Shown piece after piece: positions 106 through 16,610 of a DNA stretch of 19,124 nt. A model generated the notes under the pieces. That model saw only the letters and a list, made by a program, of their open reading frames with translations. It made no database searches and was not told the origin of the DNA. Made by a program: the position numbers and the translations under genes. This DNA is from a virus (Duplodnaviria; Heunggongvirae; Uroviricota; Caudoviricetes). The stretch is from IMG/VR virus record IMGVR_UViG_2695420427_000009. One strand, written 5' to 3'. How positions within the stretch are numbered: the stretch's first letter is position 1; each line of letters starts with the position of its first letter.

Positions 106-2001
106 ATGAGCAAAGTAAAAATCGGTGAATTAATAAACTCACTTGTTAGCGATGTTGAGTCAATAGATAACTCTGACCGTCCTCAAGGGGAGAAAACAAA
201 AAAAATAAAGGCTGTTGCATTAAAATTTAAAAATGCATTATTTAATGACAAGCGAAAGTTTAGGGGGAAAGGATTAGAAAAAAGAATTACAGCCAACACA
301 TTCAATGCCTATATGAGCAGGGCCAGAAAACGGTTTGATGATAAACTTCATCATAGCTTTGAAAAAAATATACATCGCCTATCTGAAAAGTATCCTTTAT
401 ATAATGAGGAGCTATTGTCATGGCTTTCTCTACCTGCTGCCGATATTCGCCAGAGAATGTCAGCTTTACAGGCAAAATTAAAATTAATTCTCCCTCTATC
501 AGAAGATTTATCTAATATCAGAATTGGCGATAACAAAAGTCATAATAAGTTATTGAAATTATCAAATAAATATAAAGAGTGGCAATTCGCCATTTCTGAT
601 TTAACTAGCGATAACTGGAAAGATAAGCGCGATTATTTATATAAATTACTACAGCAAGGATCTGCCTTACTTGAGGAGTTGAATCAGCTAAAAGTTAACC
701 ATGAGATTCTCTATCATCTTCAACTAAGCCCTGCCGAACGTGCATCTATCCAGCAACGATGGGCGGACGTTCTGCACAATAAGAAACGTAACGTGGTGGT
801 CATTGATTACCCTAAATATATGCAAGCTATTTACGATATTATAAATAGCCCTGCTACATTAAATAATCTAAACACTCGTTCAGGTATGGCTCCTTTGGCA
901 TTTGCACTTGCTGCATTGTCAGGAAGACGAATGATTGAGATTATGTATCAAGGTACATTTACTGTTTCTGGTAAGTATACCGTTGATTTTTTAGGCCAAG
1001 CTAAAAAAAGAACTTCTGATGATATAACCAGAAAAATATATACATTATGCGAAGCAAAAACATTTGTTTATTTAATAAATGTACTTCGCTCATGCCCAGC
1101 AGCATCTGATTTTGATGATGTCGTTAAAGGTTATGGAGATAACGACACACGCTCTGAAAACGGACGTATTAATGCCATATTAGCAAAGGCTTTTAACCCG
1201 TGGGTTAAATCATTTTTCAAAGATGACCGCCGTGTTTATAAAGATAGTCGTGCTATTTATGCCCGTATTGCGTATGAAATGTTTTTCCGCGTAGATCCTC
1301 GTTGGAAAAACGTAGATGAAGATGTTTTCTTTATGGAAATTTTAGGCCATGACGATGAAAACACTCAATTACACTATAAGCAATTCAAGCTGGCCAACTT
1401 CTCAAAGACATGGAGGCCAAATACTGGAAACGAAAATACCAGGCTGGAAGCATTGCAGCAGCTTGATGACGAAATGCCTGGATTCGCCAGAGGAGATGCC
1501 GGGGTTCGTCTGCATAACACAGTTAAGCAGCTGGTAGAGCAGGACCCCTCTATAAAAATCACGAACAGCACTCTAAGAGCGTTCAAATTTAGCCCAACAA
1601 TGATTAGTCGATACCTGGAATTTGCTGCTGATGCTCTGGGGCAATTTGTTGGCGAAAACGGACAATGGCAACTGAAAATAGATACTCCAGAAATCGTTAT
1701 GCCTGACGAAGAAGAACTGGAAGCAATACCTGAACTGGCGGATGAATTATCAGAGGATGACGATCTGGATGACGACGAAATTGAGATAGAGGAAGAGGAA
1801 GAGGAAGATAGCGTAGAAGAACAGCAACCGCCTGCACCTTCTTCGCCTGTATCTAAGCCGGTATTTAAGCCGGTGAGAAATATTGGTGATGGCTCATACG
1901 TTGTTGAGTTTCATTATAATGGCCAGAATTATGCGTGGTCCGGCAGTGCAAACAGCCCCATGTCAGCAATGCAGTTAGCATGGCTGACATATTTCGGTTA
2001 A
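106..2001 (+). CDS. telN: Protelomerase (telomere resolvase) TelN, 631 aa
   Basis: Long ORF preceded by RBS caggagagg; length and sequence strongly resemble N15 TelN as I recall it; acidic DE-rich C-terminal region typical of this family. Confidence 0.9.
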   Translation: MSKVKIGELINSLVSDVESIDNSDRPQGEKTKKIKAVALKFKNALFNDKRKFRGKGLEKRITANTFNAYMSRARKRFDDKLHHSFEKNIHRLSEKYPLYNEELLSWLSLPAADIRQRMSALQAKLKLILPLSEDLSNIRIGDNKSHNKLLKLSNKYKEWQFAISDLTSDNWKDKRDYLYKLLQQGSALLEELNQLKVNHEILYHLQLSPAERASIQQRWADVLHNKKRNVVVIDYPKYMQAIYDIINSPATLNNLNTRSGMAPLAFALAALSGRRMIEIMYQGTFTVSGKYTVDFLGQAKKRTSDDITRKIYTLCEAKTFVYLINVLRSCPAASDFDDVVKGYGDNDTRSENGRINAILAKAFNPWVKSFFKDDRRVYKDSRAIYARIAYEMFFRVDPRWKNVDEDVFFMEILGHDDENTQLHYKQFKLANFSKTWRPNTGNENTRLEALQQLDDEMPGFARGDAGVRLHNTVKQLVEQDPSIKITNSTLRAFKFSPTMISRYLEFAADALGQFVGENGQWQLKIDTPEIVMPDEEELEAIPELADELSEDDDLDDDEIEIEEEEEEDSVEEQQPPAPSSPVSKPVFKPVRNIGDGSYVVEFHYNGQNYAWSGSANSPMSAMQLAWLTYFG

Positions 2002-2172: not shown

Positions 2173-2955
2173 CTATTTATTGGTGATTTCTGCTGGCTTT
2201 AGCTGCGCGGATAACTGCTCAAGTTTTTGAACTGCCAGTTCAAAATGCGCGGGTAACGCCTTTTCCAGATCAGAGTTAATATCGGTGATGGGTAAATCAC
2301 CACACGACATACTCCGCCTACCCCCACGAACAACATCACGCAACAACTCTCGTTCATACGTGCGCATGTTCCCCAATGCCGACTCAGCAGCCGTCAAAAT
2401 CCGGCGCAGTTCTGCCGTAATTGCTGGCAAATCATCAACCGTTATGGGGTTCGGGGATGGATTACGACACGCCCGACGCAAAGCTAACCATACACCGCTA
2501 ATCCAGGCATTTCGGTACTGAAAACTTTGTGCTATATCGTTAATCAGCCCTCGCAGATACTCTTTCTGCCTCCAGTTCAACGGCTCCGCTGCTCGCATTG
2601 GCTCAGGCTCGATGTAAACGTACTCTCCATTTTTGCGAATAGAGGGCAAGACTTCGTTCGTTACCCATTTGCGAAACCGCCAAGCTGTTGTGCCTTGCTT
2701 CACCGCGTCACGGCAGCGGAGGATCAGGGTGTATAGACCTGACTCTGAAATAATATTTAGCTTTTGCTCTCCGCCAGGGGTGTAACTTAAAGTTACACCC
2801 TTTTCATCCTCATCCAGAGACATTAGCGCCTTCCGGGAATTAACGAGTCTTAAAGCATCACATACATCCTTAGCCACAAACCACGGCTCACCGTTAATCA
2901 TCACTACACGAACCTGATGCTCTTCCTGAAAGGAAAAGACTGCTAACGCGCTCAT
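2173..2955 (-). CDS. BRO-N domain protein, antirepressor-like (260 aa)
   Basis: N-terminus FSFQEEHQVRVVMINGEPWFVAKDVCDALRL...EKGV...GGEQKLNIISESGLYTLIL...WVTNEVLPSIRKNG is a typical BRO-N / P22 Ant N-terminal-like domain; start overlaps the stop of the upstream ORF (operon). Confidence 0.75.
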   Translation of the reverse strand: MSALAVFSFQEEHQVRVVMINGEPWFVAKDVCDALRLVNSRKALMSLDEDEKGVTLSYTPGGEQKLNIISESGLYTLILRCRDAVKQGTTAWRFRKWVTNEVLPSIRKNGEYVYIEPEPMRAAEPLNWRQKEYLRGLINDIAQSFQYRNAWISGVWLALRRACRNPSPNPITVDDLPAITAELRRILTAAESALGNMRTYERELLRDVVRGGRRSMSCGDLPITDINSDLEKALPAHFELAVQKLEQLSAQLKPAEITNK

Positions 2956-3185
2956 TCAGCCTCCTTATCGCGCAGCAAGTGCGACGAGAGAGACGCAGAA
3001 TATCCCTGTGCTTCATGCGTTAACTCACACGCAATCTGCAGAAGTTTTCCAGCCTCTGAGAGGTAAATCGACGCCTCACAACTGGAGACTGTCCGATGGG
3101 CTGATGATACGAGCGCATAGACCTGAGCCAGACGTTCATCCAACGATTCCAGCAGGCCAACAGTGTTCATTTTTACCTGATTCAT
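2952..3185 (-). CDS. Hypothetical protein, 77 aa, middle gene of ant operon
   Basis: ORF translationally coupled at both ends (its ATG overlaps the stop of the Icd-like ORF; its stop overlaps the start of the BRO-N ORF); no recognisable motif. Confidence 0.5.
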   Translation of the reverse strand: MNQVKMNTVGLLESLDERLAQVYALVSSAHRTVSSCEASIYLSEAGKLLQIACELTHEAQGYSASLSSHLLRDKEAE

Positions 3186-3645: not shown

Positions 3646-3665
3646 CCCCGTGACCAGTCACGGGG
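3646..3665. repeat. Perfect 20-bp palindrome CCCCGTGAC-ca-GTCACGGGG (copy 1 of palindrome family B)
   Basis: 9-bp perfect arms, 2-bp centre; lies between the lipoprotein gene stop and the ant-operon promoter; core GTGAC-NN-GTCAC recurs at 8917 and 14851. Confidence 0.6.
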
Positions 3666-3726
3666 ACAGGTGTTTTTATAGTTTGCTTGAACAAACGATC
3701 AGAACATGAACAATGTTATTGTTCCG

Positions 3727-4539
3727 TTATAAGAAAGCCTCACGCGAACGGAACACCCACTCTAGCTGTACTGGATAAATTTCTCCCGTTTTAATATTTA
3801 TTAGGCGCGCGGCTAATAACTCACCCATAAAAACCTGAGTTTTATGGCTCATATCTGACGGGTTAAAAATAGTAGGTGATGTTATATCAATATGATTACT
3901 GCTTAACCCATTTATCTTTGCTAAATATTCAATTCTAAGGTCTTTTACATTAACATCTTTTGGTATTTGTCCTTTTATATCAATATCTGCCCATATTGTT
4001 TCAGGGTTCCCTTCATTTATTTGTGTACTACCAAAGATAATTTCGGCACCTAAAGTATTTAACACTTCTACATCAGCAGATATTCCAAAAGCATTAGCAC
4101 CAACATAGCTTCCATGCTTTGTTATTTCAGAGGAATCGACATGAAAACCATACCATCCAGACATATCTCGAGATGTTATCACGCTATCACTACCGCTATT
4201 CTCAACAAAATCACGGTTAAGATATGTTCCTGAGTATGTGATACTTCTAGGGATAGACAAACCTTGAGATGTTAAAACGTTGTTGTATGGCGCGTATGTT
4301 AATGAGTGAACGACATATCCACGCCATGAACCATCATCTATCTTTGATGCAATAATTCTATTAAATTCCTTACCTGTGAGTATTTTGCTGCTAAAATCAC
4401 CAACAGAGTTGATAGGTACTCTTTTTTCTTTTTCGAATTTATACTCAACGTCCGTTGATGCCTTATTATCATATTGATAAGTGCATCCAGATAATAACAA
4501 GATAGAGAGTAATAAAGCTGTTGTTTTTTTGTTACGCAT
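3727..4539 (-). CDS. Lipoprotein of unknown function (270 aa), AT-rich moron
   Basis: N-terminus MRNKKTTALLLSILLLSGC is a signal peptide with lipobox LSGC; mature part is Ser/Thr/Gly/Tyr-rich; the gene is visibly more AT-rich than its flanks. Confidence 0.8.
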   Translation of the reverse strand: MRNKKTTALLLSILLLSGCTYQYDNKASTDVEYKFEKEKRVPINSVGDFSSKILTGKEFNRIIASKIDDGSWRGYVVHSLTYAPYNNVLTSQGLSIPRSITYSGTYLNRDFVENSGSDSVITSRDMSGWYGFHVDSSEITKHGSYVGANAFGISADVEVLNTLGAEIIFGSTQINEGNPETIWADIDIKGQIPKDVNVKDLRIEYLAKINGLSSNHIDITSPTIFNPSDMSHKTQVFMGELLAARLINIKTGEIYPVQLEWVFRSREAFL

Positions 4540-4628
4540 AATATTAACTTAACCTATTTGATTAATAATATGTTATTCCATTAAATAAAATATGCCGAGA
4601 ACGGTTTAACTTGAACAGTCATCACTAT

Positions 4629-5024
4629 TCAATCAACTTTTTTAGCATCAGCCATACGCTTCAACCAGTAATCAACAATCGGCTGCTCATCCACAGAATG
4701 TTTACCAGGTATAACTCGCCAGCTATCTTGCGAAAATCTGCCGTACTTACGCGGGAATAGGCCTTTCTTTATCTCCCGCCATGTACTAGGAAAACCATCC
4801 ACAAAAGTACCAATTAACAGGAGAGGGACAAAAATCAGAGCTACAAACCATCGTGCAAGAAAGTGTTCAACAACAACATTTTCACCGTTGTAGTAATACG
4901 CATACGCATCCAATATGCGAATTTTCCTTACCTTAAAAATAGCCTTATGTTGAGAACGACTTAACTTGATACGAATGTATCCCTTATCCAAAGGGGATTC
5001 GTATTTGTATGATTGAACAGCCAT
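4629..5024 (-). CDS. Hypothetical membrane protein (131 aa from ATG at 5024; ORF track extends to a GTG at 5036)
   Basis: One predicted TM helix (WFVALIFVPLLLIGTFV); GGGG RBS-like motif upstream of the ATG; follows the 108-aa ORF on the same strand with a 2-nt gap. Confidence 0.6.
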   Translation of the reverse strand: MAVQSYKYESPLDKGYIRIKLSRSQHKAIFKVRKIRILDAYAYYYNGENVVVEHFLARWFVALIFVPLLLIGTFVDGFPSTWREIKKGLFPRKYGRFSQDSWRVIPGKHSVDEQPIVDYWLKRMADAKKVD

Positions 5025-5026
5025 TT

Positions 5027-5353
5027 TTAACCCCACTCACCATCAGCAAACAAAGCGTTATACTCTGACAATGGTAGACGGTTGCCCTCGATGTAGAGAT
5101 TCAGTTCATACTTCGTCTCCGGGTTTTCCTTGTCGGCTCGTTCCCAACGCTCAGCAGCCTCACGCGCCAATAATTCCACTGCTTTCAGATAATCCTCCGT
5201 ACGGAACCAGCCAAAGATAAGGCCACGATCTGTTACAGCCCAGGCAAACTTTTTTTCTTCCTCCTGGATAGCCTTAATGCGTCGATCGCATTCATCCCGG
5301 CAAAACTGCAGCTGACGGTAATCAAGTTTGTCCAAAAATGCAGTAGTAGACAT
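5027..5353 (-). CDS. Hypothetical protein, 108 aa
   Basis: ORF with GGGGAG RBS 7 nt upstream of the ATG; same strand as and downstream of repA. Confidence 0.65.
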   Translation of the reverse strand: MSTTAFLDKLDYRQLQFCRDECDRRIKAIQEEEKKFAWAVTDRGLIFGWFRTEDYLKAVELLAREAAERWERADKENPETKYELNLYIEGNRLPLSEYNALFADGEWG

Positions 5354-5357
5354 ATTT

Positions 5358-5549
5358 TTACTCCCCGTTCACCGAAAAATCACGATAGAAACGTTTCCAC
5401 ATACGATAAGTCTGCGCGAGTTGTTCACCACGAAACATCGCCTTCCTGGCCTTCATGTTTTCCTTGTGAGACTTTCGATCTATGAACCAAAACCATTGCT
5501 GGAACACACAAAGCAAGAGACACAAAGATAATATCCACTGATTACCCAT
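5358..5549 (-). CDS. Putative small single-TM protein (63 aa), possibly coupled to repA
   Basis: In-frame ATG 2 nt after the repA stop codon gives MGNQWILSLCLLLCVFQQWFWFIDRKSHKEN..., a hydrophobic helix plus basic tail; the longer 102-aa form in the ORF track would overlap repA by about 125 nt. Confidence 0.35.
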   Translation of the reverse strand: MGNQWILSLCLLLCVFQQWFWFIDRKSHKENMKARKAMFRGEQLAQTYRMWKRFYRDFSVNGE

Positions 5550-8500
5550 AGAAAGCGCCCTGCTCTTCGTAGCTGCATGGGCTATTCCCGGTAATGTATT
5601 CACGTAACCGCCGCAGTTCATTGCTGGATAAGTGATCCATGAACTCTGTGAGGTACAGAGATGCAAACGTCATAGCTATGCTAGCTGATGACCATGATGA
5701 CATAGTGGCCAGCTCCTCACCGGAAAGCGCACTCATCGCCCAGGACTCAGGTACAACCACTGGCAACACAGCCAAAGCCTCAGAAATTACTGAATGAGGG
5801 GCGTTTTGAACCTGCTCGTTTGTGGATCGCGTTTTATCATCCATATATATATTGAGATCCAAATCGCGATCCATTTCGATGGCGGTCTTCTCGGCTTTAC
5901 GCGTTTTCAGGGTTAGGCCATCTTTCTGACGCTGAGCAAGAATATCCAGCATAAATGCCGCTGATTCAGGCTCAACAAAACGCAAGGTTGGACGCTTATC
6001 GCCGTCTCTGCCGCGACGTTTACCTGTTTTAAGGCCAAGAGAGTCGCAAATGTTTTTAAACAACGCTTCCGGCACTTTAGGCTTCCCTTTTGGCGTCATA
6101 AAACCACCAATGTGCAGAACGTTATTCAACAGGTCACGGCGTTCGGCTGTCATGAGGTTATCTCGAGCAAATTTGAGACGCTCCTGAGTCGCCTCGCCGG
6201 TCATAGTCTCAGGGTTGATACCGCAGTCGATAAAGTACTGCCGGAGAGTTGCTGATTTAAGCGCATAGAAACCGCGCGCCCCGACTTCAACAGTAGGAGT
6301 AGCTTTTACCTTGTGATCGATTATTCCAGGGAATTTAGTTTTAAAGACATCATCAGCCTGCTCGCGAGTCATCGCGGTCACTACAAAATATTGCCACTGT
6401 CCCGCCTGACGGTATGCGTAGGTAAAATTGATGGCTGCTTCTTCCCGGTCGTAACGACGAGCTGTTACCTCATCTAAAAGCATTGTTTCATAGCGGCGAA
6501 CTTTGTCTCGAGCACCATCGAAATAGAATTTCAGCGTGCCTTCTTCAACCGGTAGTTTCAGTTCGTTTTCAATATCCCAGCGGACAAGTTTTGCCTGTTC
6601 TTCAAGCGTCAGCGCGCGTTTTTTTAGCAGTTCTTCACGCTCTGATTCTTGTGGAGTTTCTGTATTGAGATGCAGATCCAGTGTCTGTTCCCACACAATA
6701 TCCCGCGCTTCTTTACGCAGCTCTTTACCGATATCATTCGCAGCATAATCGGTGGCCAGCGGCGATACCTTATAACCGTCGCTGTGCATGATGCAGATCA
6801 TGTTGCTGGCGTAGTCGTTACGCGCAGTCGCTTCAATAGCGGCTGCTTTAATTTTCATCCTGGTAAAGTCGGTATTGGCCACCCCCATTGATATACGGTC
6901 GCCATCGAAAACGACATCCGTCAGTTCACCGTTCATACCTGCGGTAGCAAGCAATGCCTGGGCGAATGCTCGTTCTATTTTTTGCGGGTCAGTTTCACGT
7001 TTTGCACGAGCTTTATCAAAGCCGATAATAAATTCTTTTGCTGTACGGTCGCGGCGTAGCATTTGCACTGCGTCGCTGGGTACAACTTCACCACAGAACA
7101 TGCCGAAATGACGGTCAAAATGTTTTTGCTCAATCGACACGCCGGATGAAATAGACGGGCTATAAATCAGGCCGTCGTATTTTTTGACCATCTTTTTCGG
7201 TTGATTGGTAAATGCTTCAACTTCTGGCTCTGGTTTGTTTTTCTGGTTTACACACAGAAATTTCTTACCAGGAAAATGCATTCTCAGGGTGGCGGTCACA
7301 TCTTCTGCAAAGGTGGAGCTGTCGGTGGCCAACATGATTTTTTCGCCATTCGATACAGCTTTCACCACCTCGGTCATAATGCGATCTTTTTCTGTATAAA
7401 AAACCCGGATTGGCTCACCTGTTTCGCGGTTGCGAACATCAACAGGTAATTCAATTACGTGGATCTGCAGCCATGCCGGTAAACCTAGTTCTTCACGGCG
7501 TTTCATAGCCAGTTCAGCCAGGTCAACCAGCAGATCGTTCGCATCAGCATCCACCATTATTGGGTGTTGTTCCGTTCTGGCCAGCGCGTCAATTAACGTA
7601 TTGAATACAGCCACCGGGTTTTCCATAGCCCGACCGGAAAGAACGGCACGTAGCCCTTGCGTGGCCTCGTCAAAGCCAAAATAGTCGTGCTGGCGCATCA
7701 ATGGTTGCCAGCAGTTTTTAACAATCGAGTTTATGCAGATGGTCAGTTTACTGGCGTATGGAGCCATTTCCTGATAGCCAGGGTCCTGATAGTGCAGGAT
7801 ATCGGCTTTTACACCTTTTCCTTCTGTCATCATTTCCCACAGGCCACCAATAAGGGAAACACGGTGAGCAACAGAGATACCACGTTCTGAGCTATGCATT
7901 AAAGGTCGTAACAATCCAGTAGATTTGCCGGAACCCATACCAGCACGAACGATGACTATCCCCTGTAGTGATTGCACATACTTCAGGACGTCATCGGTCA
8001 TTACCGAAGTTTCAAAACGCTTATAGGTGATATGTTGAGGACGTTTATTGGGATCAGTTATTCGTTCGCTGAATGAGCGCGGAGCCTGGGCAATACGGCA
8101 CTTTTTATTCAGGCGACGGGCAATGTGGTCTTTTACCGTAGCGCGATAGATATTTTCCAGCCCAATTTCACGCAGGGCGATGCAGAACATGTTAAATAAG
8201 TCTGACGGACTGTTAGGAACCGGACAGGTTAGCATGCCAATATCCACTGCTCTCAGCAGCTCTTTGGCAAAAGTACGACGGTTATCCCGCTTAATTGTCT
8301 TCAGGCGGTTGAGCGTCAGAGATAGCAAATCAGTGCCAGTTTTCAGGCGGTTTGCAGTTGCAAACAGTTGACGTGCTGTTTCACGAAGTCCACGTAGTTT
8401 GTGCAGGTCGTTGAAGTCACTGCACTCCATTTGCGGATCGTCTTCAAAAGTTGGATAGACGCAGCGGACATCGTTGAATTTCGATAAGATTTCATAGCCA

Positions 8501-9537
8501 GTCCGCAGGCCGGTATTCCCTTTTCCTTCTGTAGCTGATTTCCGGTCATTATCCAGTGCGCAGGTGATTTTTGCCGCCGGGTACATGTTTACCAGTTGTT
8601 CCACAACATGAACCATGTTGTTAGCGGATACAGCGACAACCACAGCGTCAAAGCGTTTATCTTTTTTCGTGGCAAGCCAGATGGATGCACCAGTAGCAAA
8701 ACCTTCTGTAACAGCGATGTTTTGCGCCCCTTTCAGCTCACCGATAACAAAGCAGGCACCGACGAAATCGCCGCTGGTTACGGCGCTGGTCTGGTATTTT
8801 CCACCTTGTTTGTCGATTCGCTGCCAACCAACAATACGACCATCGTAACGACCGTCCAGGTGAGCCAGAGGGATAGCCATATACGTGGTTGGCCCCCTGC
8901 TCCATTTTGCGCTGTCGTGACTGGTCACGCGACGCACATCACACGAATTAAAAACGTCACGAATACCTTTTTTAATCGCATATGGCCATGAGCCGTCTTC
9001 TGCAGGAGCATGTTCCCAAGCACTGTGGAATGCCAGCCATCCCAGCAAACGTTCATGGTCCATTTGGTTGTTTTTCAGGTCATTAATTCGTTTTTGTTCT
9101 TCACGGCGACGACGTGCTTCGGCCTGACGTTCTATTCTTGCCCGTTCTTCTTCCGGTTGTGCGACCACGGTCGCATTATTCCGTTGTTGCTCACGGCGAT
9201 ATTCAGAAAACAGGAAGGAGAAACCGCTCCATGAGCCAGCATCGCTGCCTTTATGGACGAAGTTAATGAACGGGTAATCAATCCCTTTGCTGTGTTCCAG
9301 CCGGGAGTAAATTTCTACGCGTCCTTTGAGGCTCTTTTCGAGAGCTTCTGGGGATGTTTTATTGTATGAAGAGTAACGCTCAACACCCCCGCGAGGGTTG
9401 AGTTGGATGTTGTCGGAACAGGCAGACCAGTTGATACCAGCCATCTGTGCCAGCTCGGTTAGTTCATCCCGTGCTGCTTCAATTAGCGAGAACGGATCGC
9501 TGCCAAAGCGATCCGCATAGAAATCGTTTAATGTCAT
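5542..9537 (-). CDS. repA: Replication protein RepA, primase-helicase (1331 aa)
   Basis: Size matches N15 RepA (~1320 aa); N-terminal primase-like region with acidic motifs (TEGFATGASI, ALDNDRKS); central Walker A VRAGMGSGKST; located between the ant region and cB as in N15. Confidence 0.9.
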   Translation of the reverse strand: MTLNDFYADRFGSDPFSLIEAARDELTELAQMAGINWSACSDNIQLNPRGGVERYSSYNKTSPEALEKSLKGRVEIYSRLEHSKGIDYPFINFVHKGSDAGSWSGFSFLFSEYRREQQRNNATVVAQPEEERARIERQAEARRRREEQKRINDLKNNQMDHERLLGWLAFHSAWEHAPAEDGSWPYAIKKGIRDVFNSCDVRRVTSHDSAKWSRGPTTYMAIPLAHLDGRYDGRIVGWQRIDKQGGKYQTSAVTSGDFVGACFVIGELKGAQNIAVTEGFATGASIWLATKKDKRFDAVVVAVSANNMVHVVEQLVNMYPAAKITCALDNDRKSATEGKGNTGLRTGYEILSKFNDVRCVYPTFEDDPQMECSDFNDLHKLRGLRETARQLFATANRLKTGTDLLSLTLNRLKTIKRDNRRTFAKELLRAVDIGMLTCPVPNSPSDLFNMFCIALREIGLENIYRATVKDHIARRLNKKCRIAQAPRSFSERITDPNKRPQHITYKRFETSVMTDDVLKYVQSLQGIVIVRAGMGSGKSTGLLRPLMHSSERGISVAHRVSLIGGLWEMMTEGKGVKADILHYQDPGYQEMAPYASKLTICINSIVKNCWQPLMRQHDYFGFDEATQGLRAVLSGRAMENPVAVFNTLIDALARTEQHPIMVDADANDLLVDLAELAMKRREELGLPAWLQIHVIELPVDVRNRETGEPIRVFYTEKDRIMTEVVKAVSNGEKIMLATDSSTFAEDVTATLRMHFPGKKFLCVNQKNKPEPEVEAFTNQPKKMVKKYDGLIYSPSISSGVSIEQKHFDRHFGMFCGEVVPSDAVQMLRRDRTAKEFIIGFDKARAKRETDPQKIERAFAQALLATAGMNGELTDVVFDGDRISMGVANTDFTRMKIKAAAIEATARNDYASNMICIMHSDGYKVSPLATDYAANDIGKELRKEARDIVWEQTLDLHLNTETPQESEREELLKKRALTLEEQAKLVRWDIENELKLPVEEGTLKFYFDGARDKVRRYETMLLDEVTARRYDREEAAINFTYAYRQAGQWQYFVVTAMTREQADDVFKTKFPGIIDHKVKATPTVEVGARGFYALKSATLRQYFIDCGINPETMTGEATQERLKFARDNLMTAERRDLLNNVLHIGGFMTPKGKPKVPEALFKNICDSLGLKTGKRRGRDGDKRPTLRFVEPESAAFMLDILAQRQKDGLTLKTRKAEKTAIEMDRDLDLNIYMDDKTRSTNEQVQNAPHSVISEALAVLPVVVPESWAMSALSGEELATMSSWSSASIAMTFASLYLTEFMDHLSSNELRRLREYITGNSPCSYEEQGAFYG
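5824..5872. other. Origin-like structure inside the 3-prime part of repA: inverted repeat GGATCGCG / CGCGATCC flanking AT-rich CATATATATATT, with three GATC sites
   Basis: Seen directly in sequence; N15 ori is reported to lie within the 3-prime part of repA (established knowledge); exact correspondence not verifiable here. Confidence 0.3.
8916..8929. repeat. Palindrome CGTGAC-tg-GTCACG (copy 2 of palindrome family B), inside repA coding sequence
   Basis: Exact 12-mer GTGACTGGTCAC shared with 14851-14862 and, in opposite orientation, with 3650-3661. Confidence 0.6.
9158..9175. other. SopB-type centromere-like palindrome TGTGCGACC-ac-GGTCGCA (copy 1 of family A), inside repA coding sequence
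   Basis: Arms TGCGACC / GGTCGCA with 2-bp centre; 6 of 7 arm positions match the F-plasmid sopC core TGGGACC-AC-GGTCCCA as I recall it; same element at 11602 and 16589. Confidence 0.6.
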
Positions 9538-9586
9538 TTTTTAGCCATTCCATGCGAATTATGTTTTTTCGGGTTGAAAAAATCCG

Positions 9587-9653
9587 CAGGAGCAGCCACA
9601 ATAAACGCATCTTGAATTGACGGAATCCGTCGCGTTACTGTGGCTGCTTCCTG
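9587..9653. promoter_or_regulatory. Long inverted repeat in the repA leader (CAGGAGCAGCCACA ... TGTGGCTGCTTCCTG, ~14 bp arms, 38-nt spacer containing palindrome GACGGA-a-TCCGTC)
   Basis: Seen in sequence 50-115 bp upstream of the repA start codon; function inferred (leader structure or countertranscript). Confidence 0.35.
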
Positions 9654-9660
9654 AAAAGGA

Positions 9661-9688
9661 CCCGAGTTTGCCGACTCGGGTTTTTTTT
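9661..9688 (+). terminator. Intrinsic terminator on the plus strand (CCCGAGT-ttgccg-ACTCGGG followed by T8), antisense to the repA leader
   Basis: Perfect 7-bp GC-rich stem followed directly by 8 T; there is no plus-strand gene upstream for at least 4 kb, so it would terminate a short antisense transcript or act on the minus strand as a weak cB-repA attenuator. Confidence 0.5.
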
Positions 9689-9782
9689 CGTCTTTTTTCT
9701 GCTGCTGTAACCTGAGTCAACCCACAGAACATATGCTCTGCATTAAACCAGATTTACAGCAAACAATAAACCCCGTATTAAG

Positions 9783-10379
9783 TCATCTACCCTCAACCAT
9801 GAATGATTTGATCGTTCCGACTATTTGGTGAACAAATTCAAGATCGCTTTTCCTGAAGATAGCGCGTTGTGAATTTGTTCCGTCCAGATAGTAATTTTCA
9901 TCATCAAAACGGGCCAGGCGCTGGATGGTGATATTTCCTGCAGTATCACGAACCAGAACATCCTCGCCGGGGACCAGTTCCAGCGCAGAATCGACCAGGA
10001 GAAAATCGCCAGGCTGATAGTTTCCCTGCGCCAGATTGCTGATAGTTAACGCATAAACAGTATTGCGCTGGCTGATGAATGGCAGGAATCGCTCAGTATT
10101 TGGAACCTGTCCTGGCTTCCACTCTTCATCAGGTCCACTTTCAGTTGTGCCAATAACAGGAATGCGATCAGGGTCATATTCTGTCCCATACAGCACCCAA
10201 TGCACTGGCTTGCGTAAGCATTTAGCCAGGGCAATACCTATCTCCAGTGACGGCATTACGTCGCCACGTTCTAAGTTTTGGACGCCTGCAATAGAGATAT
10301 CGACAGCCTCAGCAACTTCTCGCAACGTCAGCTTCATCTCTAAACGGCGTGCTTTCAGTCGTTCGCCTCGTGTTTTCAT
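9783..10379 (-). CDS. cB: Prophage repressor CB (cI-like; N-terminal HTH_XRE, C-terminal S24/LexA-like fold), 198 aa
   Basis: HTH LTLREVAEAVDISIAGVQNLERG at the N-terminus; divergent from the Cro-like gene across an operator-bearing intergenic region; size matches N15 CB. Confidence 0.8.
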   Translation of the reverse strand: MKTRGERLKARRLEMKLTLREVAEAVDISIAGVQNLERGDVMPSLEIGIALAKCLRKPVHWVLYGTEYDPDRIPVIGTTESGPDEEWKPGQVPNTERFLPFISQRNTVYALTISNLAQGNYQPGDFLLVDSALELVPGEDVLVRDTAGNITIQRLARFDDENYYLDGTNSQRAIFRKSDLEFVHQIVGTIKSFMVEGR

Positions 10380-10401
10380 AGCTTAATCATAAATGATCTT
10401 C

Positions 10402-10443
10402 TTATAGCTGGCTATAAAATTTATTTATTATAGCTGGCTTTAA
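10402..10443. promoter_or_regulatory. Operator pair in the cB-cro intergenic region: TTATAGC-tg-GCTATAA (10402-10417, perfect 16-bp palindrome) and TTATAGC-tg-GCTTTAA (10428-10443)
   Basis: Two 16-bp sites spaced 26 bp centre to centre; the second abuts the cro ATG; an additional palindrome ATCAT-aa-ATGAT sits at 10386-10397. Confidence 0.6.
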
Positions 10444-10692
10444 ATGAGATTTATTGCTTATAATAACCGCATGAAACCAGAAGAACTTATTCGCCACTTT
10501 GGCAGTGTAGAAAAAGCAGCGGCTGGGGTAGGTGTAACACCCGGTGCTGTTTACCAATGGTTAACCGCTGGAGAGATTCCTTCATTGCGGCAAAGTGATA
10601 TTGAAGTTCGTACTGCTTACAAGCTGAAGAGTGACTTTACAACTCGGCGGGTAAAGCAGTCGATTAAGGAGAGCCGTAAGCGTGGAGCTTGA
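10444..10692 (+). CDS. cro: Cro-like HTH regulator (82 aa)
   Basis: Small ORF divergent from cB with HTH SVEKAAAGVGVTPGAVYQWL; an alternative start at M10 (10471) is possible. Confidence 0.7.
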   Translation: MRFIAYNNRMKPEELIRHFGSVEKAAAGVGVTPGAVYQWLTAGEIPSLRQSDIEVRTAYKLKSDFTTRRVKQSIKESRKRGA

Positions 10693-11392
10693 GTATATAC
10701 GCAGCTGCGTCTCCACGGCATTGGCTGATATTCATTATCGCCAGCGTGGCATCCTAGAGGTCCAGCTTGAGCAGATGCGTCTAGGCAGATCAGGACGCTT
10801 TAACAATAAACCAGTCCGGTCAATCAGTGTAGGTGATGATAACTCATACGAAGTGTCCGTTCCTGCTGAGCCGGTTAGATTCCACCAGGGGAAAACATTT
10901 AAACAATCATCAATGTTGCTCACTGATATTGATTTTCAGAGCGCCAGCTGGCGCAGGGCTATTGGTCAGTTGAATAACGAGGAATCAGCCTGGCTTTATT
11001 ATTGCTACGGATGCAAGCCTGATTACAACAATGATGTGATTGTTTGTCAGTGGTTATGGCTTGATTTTCTGGTTGCTCATTCGGGGGGCGGCTTTAAAAA
11101 AATGAAGGCCTCCACGAAAAAAGCCATGCGGAAATTGATTTATTACGCGGCACAGCAGGTTAAATCAGAACTTACGTGTGCTGAGGCAGTTGATGAGAGA
11201 GAACAGGACAGGCATCTGAGTTTTCTACTGAATATATCTATTGATAGCTGGAGACAAGATTATAAAGAACGCTGGCTTTTAATTAAGTCGCGATGTCTGA
11301 GCTTAAATCGAACTGCATTATTAAATGCGGCGGAGAAGCGCAGTGAAATCATCAAACGCCATCGGGCAGGAAGTGCCATTCTGCCTTTGTAA
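10682..11392 (+). CDS. Q-like putative late-gene antiterminator (236 aa from GTG 10682; first in-frame ATG at 10775)
   Basis: Assigned mainly by synteny (cB-cro-Q order as in N15 and lambdoid phages) and a Cys-containing motif YYCYGC; no motif I can verify by eye. Confidence 0.4.
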   Translation: MELEYIRSCVSTALADIHYRQRGILEVQLEQMRLGRSGRFNNKPVRSISVGDDNSYEVSVPAEPVRFHQGKTFKQSSMLLTDIDFQSASWRRAIGQLNNEESAWLYYCYGCKPDYNNDVIVCQWLWLDFLVAHSGGGFKKMKASTKKAMRKLIYYAAQQVKSELTCAEAVDEREQDRHLSFLLNISIDSWRQDYKERWLLIKSRCLSLNRTALLNAAEKRSEIIKRHRAGSAILPL

Positions 11393-11399
11393 ACAAGTT

Positions 11400-11645
11400 A
11401 TGTTCAGGAAACCGTCGAAGCCAGAATTAAGGTATTCGGGGGTAAGAAATGAATATGTTATCTGGTGTCCAACTTGTGGTTACAGGACACGACCAGATAG
11501 TAATAAGCAGTCTGTAATTGCCGATTGGTATTTATCAAATCAGCCAGGTAATAAGCATATAGAAAATCTTTGGATTAAGCGTTACTTGGAAATCAGAGAG
11601 GGTGCGACCGTGGTCGCACAAGAAAATGAAAATAACGCCATTTAA
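11400..11645 (+). CDS. Small Cys-containing protein (81 aa), unknown function
   Basis: First ATG after the Q-like stop; sequence MFRKPSKPELRYSGVRNEYVIWCPTCGY...; its 3-prime end contains a family A centromere-like palindrome. Confidence 0.45.
   Translation: MFRKPSKPELRYSGVRNEYVIWCPTCGYRTRPDSNKQSVIADWYLSNQPGNKHIENLWIKRYLEIREGATVVAQENENNAI
11602..11619. other. SopB-type centromere-like palindrome GTGCGACC-gt-GGTCGCAC (copy 2 of family A)
   Basis: Perfect 8-bp arms; the 18-mer is the exact reverse complement of the core at 16591-16608. Confidence 0.6.
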
Positions 11646-11829
11646 GCAGGGGCCGATGACGCATGATGAAGCAGAGCGTCTTTCAGATACTTATCGGCGG
11701 CGTGGTAAGAAAGTTCTGGTTGTTCGTTCTGATTTTTTAGGTGATGGATATTGCGTTTATGTTCATTTACCTGAATCAGAAAGAACGCCAAAACCATCCA
11801 GAACATATCAACAGAAAATTTGGGTATAG
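11626..11829 (+). CDS. Hypothetical protein (67 aa)
   Basis: ORF-track entry 11602-11829 trimmed to the first ATG; basic small protein; start uncertain. Confidence 0.35.
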   Translation: MKITPFKQGPMTHDEAERLSDTYRRRGKKVLVVRSDFLGDGYCVYVHLPESERTPKPSRTYQQKIWV

Positions 11830-11852
11830 ATAAACGTTGAGGAGAATTATTC

Positions 11853-12452
11853 GTGACTAATCAGATTATTTACGACAGGAAACGGTCTGATGTAATGATT
11901 GACCTTGAAACAATGGGTACTAACACATGTGCTCCAATTGTTTCTATCGGGGCAGTGTTTTTTTCTCCAGAAAGTGAGGAATTAGGTCCTACTTTTTATG
12001 TACCAGTGAATCTCAGAAGCTCGATGTTGAATGGTGGTGTCGCCGATGGTGATACCATTTTATGGTGGTTGAAACAGAGCAAGGAAGCCAGAGCCGCAAT
12101 TTGTACTAATGATGCCCTTGATATTAAGGATGCACTTTTTGAATTATCACACTTTATTACTTGCCATGCATGTAATTTAAAAAAATTGAAAGTATGGGGA
12201 AATGGAGCAACGTTCGATAATGTAATTTTACGCGGTGCTTATGAGCGCGTTGGCTTAGCCTGTCCGTGGGAATATTTTAATGATCAGGATGTTCGAACAA
12301 TCGTTAACCTTGGTCAGTTTATTGGTTTTAATCCTAAAAAAGATATGCCATTTGATGGCGAACGACACAATGCCCTGGCTGATGCTATTCATCAGGCTAA
12401 ATATGTATCAGCAATTTTCTCCCGTCTTGTAAAAGGGCAAGGAGAATCGTAA
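11853..12452 (+). CDS. DEDDh-type 3-prime to 5-prime exonuclease (DnaQ-like fold), 199 aa
   Basis: GTG start 7 nt after GAGGAG RBS; motifs MIDLET (Exo I), WGNGATFD (Exo II), ERHNALADA (Exo III with His). Confidence 0.75.
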   Translation: MTNQIIYDRKRSDVMIDLETMGTNTCAPIVSIGAVFFSPESEELGPTFYVPVNLRSSMLNGGVADGDTILWWLKQSKEARAAICTNDALDIKDALFELSHFITCHACNLKKLKVWGNGATFDNVILRGAYERVGLACPWEYFNDQDVRTIVNLGQFIGFNPKKDMPFDGERHNALADAIHQAKYVSAIFSRLVKGQGES

Positions 12453-12871
12453 TGGCAAAGGCTTTTACACCAGAACAGAGGGAAGAACTGAATAAACAAA
12501 TTGTGGAACTCGTGCGCCTGAATGGACGAGGAACGGTTAGGCAACTTGCGGATGAAACTGGTATTAGCCGGTGTGCTGTTAGTCGTTTATCAAGAGAGCT
12601 TGCTGCCAGTGGTGATTTGTATATCTCTGGCTCCGGGATATTTCTGTCTGCACAAGCACGCAAGGACTGGCAAAACGCCCGTAAAAAACTATCAAGAGTA
12701 AAGCCGAAGACATCGGTAGTGGTTGATCCAGACCTTATCTGGTCATTACCTGACGGAGAAATACGTCGTTACGACAGGCGCTTGAACATGATTTGTCACG
12801 ATTGCCGGAAAAGTGAAGTTATGCAGCGTGTGCTGGCTTTTTATCAGGGAAATTTTCAGGAGGTGGCGTAG
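12452..12871 (+). CDS. HTH DNA-binding protein (139 aa), unknown function
   Basis: HTH-like TVRQLADETGISRCAVSRLSRELAASG; start overlaps upstream stop (TAATG). Confidence 0.55.
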   Translation: MAKAFTPEQREELNKQIVELVRLNGRGTVRQLADETGISRCAVSRLSRELAASGDLYISGSGIFLSAQARKDWQNARKKLSRVKPKTSVVVDPDLIWSLPDGEIRRYDRRLNMICHDCRKSEVMQRVLAFYQGNFQEVA

Positions 12872-13161
12872 TGAATATCGACACCACGATAACGATCGAT
12901 ACGGCCCTAAATATCGGTCTGGCACTTCTCGGTTGGTTTTACATCATGTTCAGTGCGGGGAAGTGGGCGGCCTCTGTTTTTCTAAAGCAGTGGGGAAAGC
13001 ACCGCAAACAGGAAAGACGCCAGAAAGTGTTAGAGGCGTTCTATGACGCATTTGAACTTAGCCGCATTGAGCCAGGCACAACAGCCAAGATAGCGACAAA
13101 AGGCGACCTGATGATAGTGATGTTCCGACAGGAGAGAGCAGAGAAAGGGGAATCAGCATGA
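12871..13161 (+). CDS. Small membrane protein (96 aa)
   Basis: GTG start 5 nt after strong AGGAGGTGG RBS; N-terminal TM helix ALNIGLALLGWFYIMF. Confidence 0.55.
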   Translation: MNIDTTITIDTALNIGLALLGWFYIMFSAGKWAASVFLKQWGKHRKQERRQKVLEAFYDAFELSRIEPGTTAKIATKGDLMIVMFRQERAEKGESA

Positions 13162-13736
13162 AATTTTCCAAATTTTCTGAGTTGGTGAATCGTATTTTGT
13201 CCAACAACCACAGCCATCGTCGCGATATGGATGTAACAATCGTTATTCATTCGCCTGGCAGCATTGGTTCAACACCTTCAGTTGAGGTTCAGTCAATTCA
13301 CGCTGGTTTTGATTGGGATTCCGGGAAAGTGCTTATTTTCCCATCACAGCCACTGACCACGCTAACACCAGAACAGATTACTGATATCACTGATAGTGTG
13401 CGCAAAGGTCAGTCCTGGCACGCATATCAGGAATACAAAAAGCATAAAGAGCAGTTGGAAAAATTGTCTATTGAGCTGGAAGCTGCAAGAAAGCGAATTT
13501 CAGAACAGGGAAATAAAGTAATACCAGTGTCAGCTGAATTGCCACCTGCAAATGAAAGTGTTCTGTTATTTGATGCTAACGGAGAAGGCTGGCTGATTGG
13601 CTGGCGTTCTCTCTGGTACACCTGGGGACAAAAGGAAACCGGAGAATGGCAGTGGACATTTCAGGTCGGGGATCTTGAAAACGTCAATATCACTCATTGG
13701 GCAGTAATGCCGAAAGCACCGGAGGCTGGAGCATAA
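13158..13736 (+). CDS. Phage protein with DUF551-like C-terminal domain (192 aa)
   Basis: ATGA overlap with upstream gene; RBS GAAAGGGG; C-terminus ...GWLIGWRS...THWAVMPKAPE resembles DUF551 proteins common in lambdoid phages. Confidence 0.55.
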   Translation: MKFSKFSELVNRILSNNHSHRRDMDVTIVIHSPGSIGSTPSVEVQSIHAGFDWDSGKVLIFPSQPLTTLTPEQITDITDSVRKGQSWHAYQEYKKHKEQLEKLSIELEAARKRISEQGNKVIPVSAELPPANESVLLFDANGEGWLIGWRSLWYTWGQKETGEWQWTFQVGDLENVNITHWAVMPKAPEAGA

Positions 13737-14512
13737 TGATCACGTTTACCGACAAAGAACTGATTAAAGAAATCAAAGAGCGAATCGGTAGCCTGGACGT
13801 TCGAGACAATATTGAGCGCCGTGCTTATGAAATTGCACTGGCATCGCTGGAAGCAGATCCAGTTGCTTATATTTTCAAACATCCAGCCGGAAAATTATTC
13901 TGGTCGTTGACCGATGAAAGCAATAAAGAACAACCGGACGTGATTTCTGTTTATGCTGCCTCACCTGCACCGATATCGTCGGAGGCCATTGAATACGCAA
14001 TTGAATACATCCGCAGTATCGCTTTTCACATCGATGAAGACGATTACCACGGCAAACATATTGCGTATTTCATGCGACAAGCATTGGCCTGGCTGGAAGG
14101 GCATTCATGCAGCGACGACAGGCTGGGTAAGGCCGACAATCAACCCGCATCTGGTAACCAGGCTGCCGAATCCAATCGCGGTAATGAGTGGACTGGCAAT
14201 CCTGATATTGATAACGCCATCATCATGCTCGATCGCATAGATACGCTGGAAAATTGCGATGATGACCGTATTGAGGCGGTTAAGGCTGTTTTGCGTAGAC
14301 TGGCTGGCAACTATCCGGTAATTCCGGATGGTTGGATAAGCTGTAGTGAGCAAATGCCAGATGATGGTCGTATTCAGTTTTCTGTTTCACTTCCAGCAGC
14401 ATGTGGTGGAGATAAATATTTTATTGATGGTGTATTTCAACCTTTGAGATATGAGCGTGACTGTGAAAAAGCGGTTGTGGCCGCTGGCGGTGTAGTTAAT
14501 TGGGTTAAGTAA
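13736..14512 (+). CDS. Phage protein with DUF551-like C-terminal domain (258 aa)
   Basis: Start moved to the ATG overlapping the upstream stop (ATGA); the ORF-track start at 13697 would overlap the previous gene by 40 nt. Confidence 0.55.
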   Translation: MITFTDKELIKEIKERIGSLDVRDNIERRAYEIALASLEADPVAYIFKHPAGKLFWSLTDESNKEQPDVISVYAASPAPISSEAIEYAIEYIRSIAFHIDEDDYHGKHIAYFMRQALAWLEGHSCSDDRLGKADNQPASGNQAAESNRGNEWTGNPDIDNAIIMLDRIDTLENCDDDRIEAVKAVLRRLAGNYPVIPDGWISCSEQMPDDGRIQFSVSLPAACGGDKYFIDGVFQPLRYERDCEKAVVAAGGVVNWVK

Positions 14513-14527
14513 TTTTTAGGAGGATTT

Positions 14528-14854
14528 ATGGCGCTGACACCGGCAGAACGGCAAAGAAGACGCAGGGAACGGTTGAAGAAGGAAGGAACATCAAGACGTG
14601 ACTGGATTCTGGAACCTGACGAGTTACGTATGTTGGGGGAAATTTGTGTATTGCGTAGACCAGGGCGAGTTCCATATTCAGAGAACGAAGTCATCGGACT
14701 GCTGATCAGGAAAAACTATAAGGAGTTGCAGAAACAGCTATCTACTACTTGTCCGCGATGTGGTCAAAAAATGCCTGTTTCAGAATGCATTTTTGATGGT
14801 GAAGGCTCATGCCACCTTACAACCACGAGGCTGAAACTTGCGCTCAAAGTGTGA
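14528..14854 (+). CDS. Hypothetical basic protein with C-terminal Cys cluster (108 aa)
   Basis: Strong RBS TAGGAGGA 5 nt upstream; Arg-rich N-terminus (RQRRRRERLKKEG) and CPRCG...C...C Zn-ribbon-like tail. Confidence 0.6.
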   Translation: MALTPAERQRRRRERLKKEGTSRRDWILEPDELRMLGEICVLRRPGRVPYSENEVIGLLIRKNYKELQKQLSTTCPRCGQKMPVSECIFDGEGSCHLTTTRLKLALKV

Positions 14855-14862
14855 CTGGTCAC
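14851..14862. repeat. Palindrome GTGAC-tg-GTCAC (copy 3 of palindrome family B), spanning the stop codon of the 14528 ORF
   Basis: Exact 12-mer identical to 8917-8928. Confidence 0.6.
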
Positions 14863-14872
14863 GGAGGGATAA

Positions 14873-15028
14873 ATGGACAAAAAGGCATTGCTTTTTGAAA
14901 TGATACGAAAACGGAGCGAAAAGAGCTTTTCTGATGGTGGTGATGGGCTTTTGAAAGTGGTTGGGCGAGGCGTAGGAAGGGAACATAAGTATCGGACTAC
15001 AAAGATATTTAACCAGTTAATCCATTGA
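14873..15028 (+). CDS. Small hypothetical protein (51 aa), absent from the ORF track
   Basis: ATG preceded by GGAGGG RBS at 7-nt spacing; MDKKALLFEMIRKRSEKSF... Confidence 0.35.
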   Translation: MDKKALLFEMIRKRSEKSFSDGGDGLLKVVGRGVGREHKYRTTKIFNQLIH

Positions 15029-15054: not shown

Positions 15055-15074
15055 CCCTGTAATTTTATACAGTA
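15055..15074. promoter_or_regulatory. LexA (SOS) box CCCTGTAATTTTATACAGTA
   Basis: CTGT-N8-ACAG with AT-rich spacer and 3-prime TA; the only such site in the window; 23 bp upstream of the 15097 ORF. Confidence 0.6.
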
Positions 15075-15096: not shown

Positions 15097-15315
15097 ATGG
15101 TATTAGATTCAATGACTGAAGCACCTGTATCAACTCTTGAAGAACTCGGATCAAACCTAAAAGACATCGACGCCGTTTTGGATCTGGTTAGCGTTGCTCT
15201 GGCTTCTCCAGAAGCCAGCTTGCATCTTGGCGAGATTTCACGACTTGTTAGTATGTCGCGGGAGATTGCTCAGAATTGCCAACAAGTTATTGCTGTTGAG
15301 TGTTTACATCATTGA
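15097..15315 (+). CDS. Small protein (72 aa) under a LexA box, candidate SOS-inducible antirepressor (N15 AntC-like role)
   Basis: ORF directly downstream of the LexA box; no strong RBS (alternative start at 15112); functional call is inference from context. Confidence 0.45.
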   Translation: MVLDSMTEAPVSTLEELGSNLKDIDAVLDLVSVALASPEASLHLGEISRLVSMSREIAQNCQQVIAVECLHH

Positions 15316-16357: not shown

Positions 16358-16585
16358 ATGAATATTAATGAAATTCGTGGAAATATGACTGAAGCGGCCC
16401 TGAGTGTGGAATGTGTTATGCGTGGATACCCACGCATTTCCCTGAAAGAGTTAAGCGAAGCCTGTTTTTTGAGTCAAGCTGCCGTTGAATTTATCATCGA
16501 ACAGATGATCTGTTTTGGGGTTGCAAAGCGTAGCGGGTCTGGTCGATATTCTTTGACCGATGAATATAAGCAGGCAACTTTCTAA
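16358..16585 (+). CDS. Small putative winged-helix DNA-binding protein (75 aa)
   Basis: RBS GAGAGG upstream; sequence ...ISLKELSEACFLSQAAVEFIIEQMICFGVAKRSGSGRYSLT resembles small wHTH regulators; weak assignment. Confidence 0.45.
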   Translation: MNINEIRGNMTEAALSVECVMRGYPRISLKELSEACFLSQAAVEFIIEQMICFGVAKRSGSGRYSLTDEYKQATF

Positions 16586-16588
16586 AAA

Positions 16589-16610
16589 CTGTGCGACCAC
16601 GGTCGCACAG
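16589..16610. other. SopB-type centromere-like palindrome CTGTGCGACC-ac-GGTCGCACAG (copy 3 of family A), intergenic
   Basis: Perfect 10-bp arms with 2-bp centre, 4 nt after the stop of the 16358 ORF. Confidence 0.65.

Follow-up and report, generated by a model that had tools for sequence, protein, structure and literature searches.

Three copies of the palindrome GTGAC-NN-GTCAC, found in a 19,124-nt stretch of viral DNA (IMG/VR record IMGVR_UViG_2695420427_000009; hereafter, the window), are probably the cognate sites of a protein encoded by the phage itself, namely the homolog of gene product 46 (gp46) of phage N15. The stop codon of this candidate binder lies within one of the three sites. 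The window corresponds to the right arm of a linear, N15-like phage-plasmid, and over the aligned parts, it shares 98% identity with Escherichia phage PhiR46_1, 96% with YDC107_1, and approximately 75% with N15 and phiKO2. We infer binding from the sites themselves, their conservation, the co-occurrence of motif and gene in unrelated phages, the covariation of the site with the protein, and the predicted ribbon-helix-helix (RHH) fold of gp46.

Counted on both strands, the 12-mer GTGACTGGTCAC has exactly three copies in the window (starting at 3650, 8917 and 14851; Table 1), while no match was obtained in 200 dinucleotide-preserving shuffles. The initial annotation of the window had listed the same three copies as a non-random family, and the positions given there proved accurate: site 1 lies within a perfect 20-bp palindrome (CCCCGTGACCAGTCACGGGG, 3646–3665) upstream of the ant-operon promoter, site 2 is inside repA, and site 3 spans a stop codon about 200 bp upstream of an AntC-like gene preceded by a LexA box. 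Extended to 14 bp (CGTGAC-NN-GTCACG), the palindrome is intact at sites 1 and 2, whereas site 3 deviates from it at a single position. No additional copies were found in the window, PhiR46_1, N15, or phiKO2 when one-mismatch versions of the 12-bp core were searched for. Site 1 follows the repA operon at a distance of 66 nt from its last gene; relative to the ant promoter, the center of the site lies upstream, about 30 bp from the −35 hexamer and near −66 from the inferred start. The hexamers of this promoter, a putative regulatory target of site 1, are kept in the alignment with N15 and phiKO2. Site 3 is separated by 10 nt from the gene-47 homolog that follows (start codon, ATG), and falls between gp46 and the Shine-Dalgarno sequence of this gene. 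An overlap of sites 1 and 3 with promoters, drawn by eye, was not borne out by scans.

The whole genomes of PhiR46_1, N15 and phiKO2 contain exactly three perfect 12-mers each, and all of them are syntenic: upstream of the ant operon (site 1 counterparts at 3009 in PhiR46_1, 28550 in N15, and 30784 in phiKO2), within repA (site 2 counterparts at 33237 in N15 and 35664 in phiKO2), and at gene 46 (gp45 in phiKO2), where the site overlaps the stop codon. The conservation at syntenic positions that the initial annotation had set as a check is borne out by N15 and phiKO2. In the alignments, the 12-mer is unchanged while its flanks diverge, and site 2 is part of an approximately 22-nt invariant run of repA, around which roughly every third base varies. 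The codon-level conservation of site 2 was not used as evidence, because the loci of that analysis had been chosen for carrying the motif. About 25 bp from site 2, at 8945–8955 (33265–33275 in N15), there is an invariant 11-nt run, ACGTCACGAAT, which holds a lone GTCAC half-site and is kept in the window, N15 and phiKO2, while the neighboring codons vary. The record of YDC107_1 (CP025712.1) has five motif copies, because the telN-ant-repA segment is doubled; the two copies of the segment are inverted, and telN and repA annotations are fragmented in the second one. This record looks like a head-to-head replicated telomere or an assembly dimer.

In order to extend the comparison beyond N15-type phages, IMG/VR was scanned with the 14-mer, and other phage genomes bearing gp46 homologs were found by tblastn. 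Word-indexed search gave only close relatives of gp46, and the distant ones were reached by an exhaustive search of representatives. Besides many N15-like contigs, the scan with the 14-mer yielded unrelated phages with a gp46 homolog (33–39% identity) directly at the motif. At a chance expectation of about 0.04 motif copies per 40 kb, three GTGACATGTCAC sites were found in epsilon15 (one on the stop codon of gp49), three sites in ZF40 (one begins 3 nt past the stop of the homolog), two in Pantoea phage AH07 (one on the stop), two in the 20.7 kb covered of Klebsiella phage BUCT711 (one on the stop), and one, on the stop, in the 28.9 kb covered of Vibrio phage 10N.237. Vibrio phage K303 and PhiPS02 have three 12-bp sites each, and a P2-like Yersinia phage with a truncated gp46 homolog has one perfect site and one near-match. 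In most of the unrelated motif-bearing lineages, the motif overlaps or abuts the stop codon of the homolog. According to a hidden Markov model of the family, the distance from stop codon to motif center is exactly +3.5 nt in every N15-type locus and in epsilon15, AH07, and locus L044; the same distance was found in BUCT711 and Vibrio phage 10N.237. Since the site overlaps or abuts the stop of the gene in many unrelated temperate phages, gp46 and one site can be regarded as a portable module.

One further contig of high G–C content (IMGVR_UViG_3300037878_000134) carries six GTGAC-NN-GTCAC copies at 10585–10703, with alternating spacing of 17 and 28 bp, inside an ORF (open reading frame) of 416 aa. 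The array is laid out like origin iterons in a replication gene, no gp46-family member is present in the fetched flank, and the copies may belong to an unrelated protein with a similar site.

Gene 46 is the only ORF of N15 that has homologs in all eight of the unrelated motif-bearing phages; the runner-up has homologs in two of the eight. That one shared sequence-specific DNA-binding protein recognizes the sites, as proposed in the initial annotation, is implied by the existence of the family, but the candidates named there, two helix-turn-helix proteins and CB/Cro, are absent from the unrelated motif-bearing phages, all of which have a gp46 homolog. The DUF977 winged helix-turn-helix protein encoded at 12452, the gp51-like winged helix-turn-helix protein at 16358, CB, and Cro are predicted DNA-binding proteins of the same early region. 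However, N15 and phiKO2 retain all three sites but lack a homolog of the DUF977 protein, and no homologs of gp51, CB, or Cro were found in motif-bearing epsilon15, AH07, ZF40, K303, and the Mu-like phages. The operators of CB/Cro, the specificity of which has been described (PMC4488713), are a different 16-bp palindrome. In the window, the CB operator TTATAGCTGGCTATAA is found at 10402–10417, between cB and cro, and has no sequence in common with the 12-mer. A role of any of these regulators as the binder is, hence, very improbable.

The association of motif and gene was also followed in a sample drawn independently of the motif, which consisted of 70 telomere-phage loci from IMG/VR chosen by RepA peptide patterns (alignment of four RepA segments). 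In the 47 loci that extend as far as gp46, the motif is found without exception at the gp46 stop and in repA, and site 1 is present in every locus whose flank covers that position. Two loci with an upstream flank too short for gp46 still carry sites 2 and 1. All 20 PY54-like loci (RepA 45–54% identical) are without gp46, and have zero motifs in 4–21 kb. PY54 itself, a telomere phage with a 50% identical RepA, yielded no gp46-family hit even when E-values up to 10 were allowed (E ≤ 10); it also lacks a perfect motif, its RepA being diverged at the syntenic peptide. Lambda likewise has no motif copy. One locus was left out of these counts (IMGVR_UViG_3300036778_000064; RepA 56%). It represents an intermediate telomere-phage lineage with two motif copies 32 bp apart in repA (GTGACGTGTCAC and GTGACCCGTCAC, at 6753–6796). 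Its upstream sequence of 6.4 kb includes no gp46 gene, but the contig may end before the gp46 region. The split of the RepA sample is essentially one between two clades, and therefore, independent weight comes from the unrelated phage groups.

Covariation of site and protein was observed in locus L182, which has an N15-like RepA (64% identity), but a gp46 of the epsilon15 type, with the predicted beta-strand KKVELML instead of RRDWILE. All three syntenic sites of this locus are GTGACATGTCAC, with the center as in epsilon15, ZF40, and BUCT711, and in repA, the change costs a Ser to Cys replacement (RVTSHD to RVTCHD). The GTGAC half-sites are invariant in all lineages.

The half-sites of the 12-mer are identical to those of matS (GTGAC-RNY-GTCAC), which brings up the explanation that a conserved host protein, chiefly MatP, binds the sites and serves phage-plasmid positioning or MukBEF exclusion. 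This is improbable on several grounds. The matS site is 13 bp long (GTGACRNYGTCAC; PMC6907758), while the motif is 12 bp, and a 13-bp form is absent from the window, PhiR46_1, YDC107_1, N15, phiKO2, epsilon15, AH07, ZF40, and the Yersinia phage. The hosts of PY54 and lambda possess MatP, yet these two phages have no copies; the center of the site follows the subtype of phage gp46 rather than the host; and a host factor would not account for the close connection between the motif and the gp46 stop codon. One 13-mer each (GTGACACCGTCAC/GTGACGGTGTCAC), a perfect match to the matS consensus, is present in Vibrio phage K303 (19491–19503) and PhiPS02 (8773–8785). The possibility that gp46 is a homolog of MatP was rejected at the sequence level (hhalign probability, 0.24%). 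In contrast to MatP, gp46 has a zinc ribbon in place of the four-helix bundle and coiled coil, and the system is phage-borne. The site of SlmA (GTGAGTACTCAC) is also 12 bp long, and mutating its positions 1, 2, 4 or 5 significantly impairs SlmA binding (PMC3020112). It was rejected as well, as its position 5 has to be G, whereas the motif always has C there.

Enumeration of the palindromes in the window recovered two separate families, GTGAC-NN-GTCAC and TGCGACC-NN-GGTCGCA, in agreement with the earlier claim that the 12-mer is distinct from both the sopC-like palindromes and the cB operators. The second family (9160–9175, 11603–11618, and 16592–16607) corresponds to the IR/SopB centromere sites of N15. 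There are four copies of it in N15 and five in PhiR46_1 (two past the window end), and one copy in repA is only 243 bp from site 2. The sopC repeat of the F plasmid is TGGGACC-NN-GGTCCCA. Similar to the 12-mer, N15 IR1–IR4 are dispersed perfect palindromes of the right arm, some of which are found in genes, including repA, and the three sites might be viewed as secondary or low-affinity SopB centromere sites, or as centromeres of another partition system. Such an origin is hardly credible, as the arm sequences differ, the spacing of half-sites is off by 2 bp, and the three sites fail the TGCGACC-NN-GGTCGCA pattern even at two mismatches. In the annotation of phiKO2, only the positions of the IR family are marked as "putative plasmid partitioning sites", no partner ATPase gene adjoins gp46, and the same sets of motifs are carried by integrating phages that need no partition system (epsilon15, ZF40). 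The IR/sopC family is annotated, experimentally known, and goes with the Sop system independently of PY54, whereas the 12-mer family follows gp46 rather than SopB.

In N15-type phages, the TGA stop occupies positions 2–4 of the motif, while in three Mu-like contigs (L035, L091, and L121), the motif is contained in the 3′ end of the ORF, and is read in another frame, as V-T-G-H. In total, three different reading-frame contexts keep the motif, and it is, therefore, conserved as DNA and not as coding sequence. This, together with the shuffles, which exclude chance, argues against a by-product of coding constraint or chance. A role of the motif in RNA, whether as a hairpin, a terminator, or an operator of translation, would fit the zinc-ribbon-like module of gp46 and the location of several sites 10–22 nt before a start codon; in several phages, the site lies either at this distance from the ATG of the next gene or directly before terminase genes. 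In epsilon15, one site (19517) abuts a predicted intrinsic terminator, and another (39612) is followed by an annotated one after 22 nt; the surroundings of the third site (2142) are ambiguous, so that an abutment of all three sites on terminators holds for two only. However, a 5-bp stem with a 2-nt loop cannot form, and the RNA folding z-scores (−2.7, −0.86 and +0.37 for sites 1, 2 and 3, respectively) indicate that sites 2 and 3 are no more stable than the shuffles. Site 1 stands out only via the CCCC/GGGG extension, which is absent from N15 and phiKO2, and scans detected no terminator-like element at any of the three window sites. Both the RNA-level and the by-product explanations are, thus, extremely improbable.

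Profile searches with the window protein and its family assigned gp46 to phrog_536 ("transcriptional regulator"; E-value, 5 × 10−32), and to no Pfam or NCBIfam family; in the databases, all members of the family are named "hypothetical" or "phage protein". An AlphaFold model built from a 46-sequence alignment (predicted local distance difference test, pLDDT, 89.6) superseded the single-sequence model (pLDDT 48). It consists of a basic helix (residues 5–19), helices 30–42 and 52–71, a Cys-rich knuckle (75–95) and a last helix (96–104). The modeled structure has matches to RHH folds and appears to contain the beta-strand-helix-helix arrangement. The segment at about residues 22–28 is read here as the putative RHH beta-strand, although no strand is assigned to it by DSSP. 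Based on the model, gp46 is predicted to be an RHH protein with a C-terminal zinc-ribbon-like module. Two arginines of the N-terminal basic helix (R8 and R13) and three cysteines are invariant in the family alignment. Curated RHH models gave sub-threshold hits only (RHH_5, RepB-RCR_reg and RHH_1 with E-values of 0.013, 0.028, and 0.071, respectively), each in one or two of the 46 members, and none of these models matched the gp46 of the window itself. In a search of the gp46 profile against PDB sequences, the C-terminal half was borderline similar to TraR and YbiI (E-values, 0.01–0.02). In this weak match, CxxCG..(I/L)P and the third Cys line up, and the fourth Cys is displaced. The Pfam zf-dskA_traR model found no match in the family, and the likeness to TraR/DksA zinc fingers is, at this point, a lead only.

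The predicted beta-strand-helix-helix core is shared with RHH regulators such as Arc and Mnt of P22, CopG, AmrZ, and the TacA/ParD antitoxins, as is the combination of a small regulator with a short two-fold-symmetric site of about one dimer footprint. As in AmrZ, the N-terminal extension of gp46 likely adds contacts. On the other hand, gp46 differs from these regulators by the invariant basic N-terminal helix, the C-terminal four-Cys zinc-ribbon-like module, and the lack of a match to a curated model. Moreover, its signature site is found on its own stop codon and not in a promoter, and the sites are single and dispersed instead of being arranged as tandem operators.

If gp46 is the binder, one dimer would occupy each 12-bp site, with the RHH beta-ribbon reading the center of the site, and the invariant basic helix (R8, R13) reading the GTGAC half-sites. 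N15-type phage-plasmids would have recruited two more sites in addition to that at the gp46 stop, one between the end of the repA operon and the promoter of ant (secondary immunity), and the other inside repA. Binding would most likely modulate transcription at three nodes of the early region, i.e., the entry to the ant operon, repA, and the segment of gene 47 and antC. Roadblock, repressor or polarity control, activation from about −66, and modulation of termination could all fit the positions of the sites, and the data do not discriminate between them.

More tentatively, and with a rather low likelihood, the gp46 family may represent a new class of DNA-tethered regulators of transcription elongation or termination. 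The RHH domain would then sit on sites at operon junctions or before terminators, and the TraR/DksA-like zinc module would engage the passing RNA polymerase. Were this the case, epsilon15-like and some Vibrio phages, in which no Q is annotated, would have in gp46 their missing late-gene switch, and in N15, gp46 would control the entry of transcription into the ant, repA and antC segments. In a variant of this proposal, gp46 would act as a phage analog of MatP that organizes or positions phage DNA via matS-like sites. A system comparable in position is lambda Q and its Q binding element (QBE). The early genes of epsilon15-like and some Vibrio phages end with the gp46 homolog, after which come the lysis or terminase genes, and the site of the homolog is likewise found just downstream of it, near terminators. 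Nevertheless, gp46 has neither sequence nor fold similarity to Q, the sites show no evident promoter or pause element, and N15, ZF40 and AH07 have Q-like genes besides gp46. In epsilon15-like podophages and Vibrio siphophages, the homolog or its sites are located immediately upstream of genes for the terminase small subunit or lysis (39277–39672 in epsilon15, 1616–2760 in L044, and 35942–35973 in K303). The epsilon15-like and Vibrio genomes with this placement have no annotated late antiterminator, and lambda Q occupies the same position.

The features of the window that surround the three sites are listed in Table 1. The AntA-like and AntC-like proteins are paralogs, and both are assigned to phrog_6301/phrog_10889 ("anti-repressor"). 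A LexA box precedes the gene of the latter, so that the two antirepressor copies of the phage are under different control. The AntC-like gene is followed by a RelE/HTH toxin–antitoxin pair, gp50, gp51, a methylase, and the lysis genes. The link of the palindromes to the two antirepressor loci, drawn in the initial annotation, is positionally true in N15-type phages. It is not a general rule, because the invariant association across the phage groups is that with the 3′ end of the gp46-family gene. In BUCT711, a LexA-box-like element (CTGT-N8-ACAG, at about 20370–20390) lies directly 3′ of the gp46-stop site and before a UmuD-like gene, which parallels the LexA box located approximately 200 bp past site 3 in the window.

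Table 1. Palindromic sites and neighboring features of the window.
Feature	Position	Strand	Sequence or context
telN	106–2001		
AntB/Bro	2173–2955		member of the leftward ant operon
AntA	2952–3185	−	member of the leftward ant operon
Promoter-like element of the ant (immA) operon	3625→3596	−	TTGACG-18-TAAAGT
Site 1	3650–3661		GTGACCAGTCAC on the + strand; intergenic, between the end of the repA operon and the ant-operon promoter
repA	5542–9537	−	leftward repA operon, the last gene of which ends (stop) at 3727
Site 2	8917–8928		GTGACTGGTCAC; inside repA; coding (−) strand GTG ACC AGT CAC, V-T-S-H
cB	9783–10379		followed by cro and Q
gp46 homolog	14528–14854	+	108 aa; within the early-right operon
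Site 3	14851–14862		GTGACTGGTCAC; includes the TGA stop (14852–14854) of the gp46 homolog
Gene-47 homolog	14873–15028	+	directly 3′ of site 3; putative target of polar/roadblock control
LexA box	15057–15072		CTGT-N8-ACAG; precedes the AntC-like ORF, ~200 bp downstream of site 3
AntC-like ORF	15097–15315	+	LexA box in front

N15 is the model linear plasmid-prophage, and its immB, immA and antC circuitry, as well as the dispersed Sop centromeres, have already been studied. No mention of any motif variant, gene 46, or the function of its homologs was found in the searchable literature (N15 papers in subscription journals were outside the search), in which the sequences of the motif variants matched only unrelated primers. 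An RHH regulator with a palindromic site is a well-known kind of element. What appears to be new is the protein family, its fusion with a zinc ribbon, the placement of a site in the stop codon of its own regulator, and the three-site regulon of N15-type phage-plasmids.

If gp46 binds the sites, N15-type phage-plasmids have an extra regulatory layer on the antirepressor operon, the replication gene, and the segment with the SOS-controlled antirepressor. The module of protein plus site recurs in epsilon15-like podophages, Mu-like phages, ZF40, Pantoea phage AH07, and many Vibrio phages, and it is therefore likely that assigning a function to gp46 would annotate a broad family of "hypothetical" phage proteins. 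It might also reveal how late genes are switched on in phages without a known late regulator. The site embedded in the stop codon would, in addition, provide an example of a regulator and its operator held together as one mobile unit.

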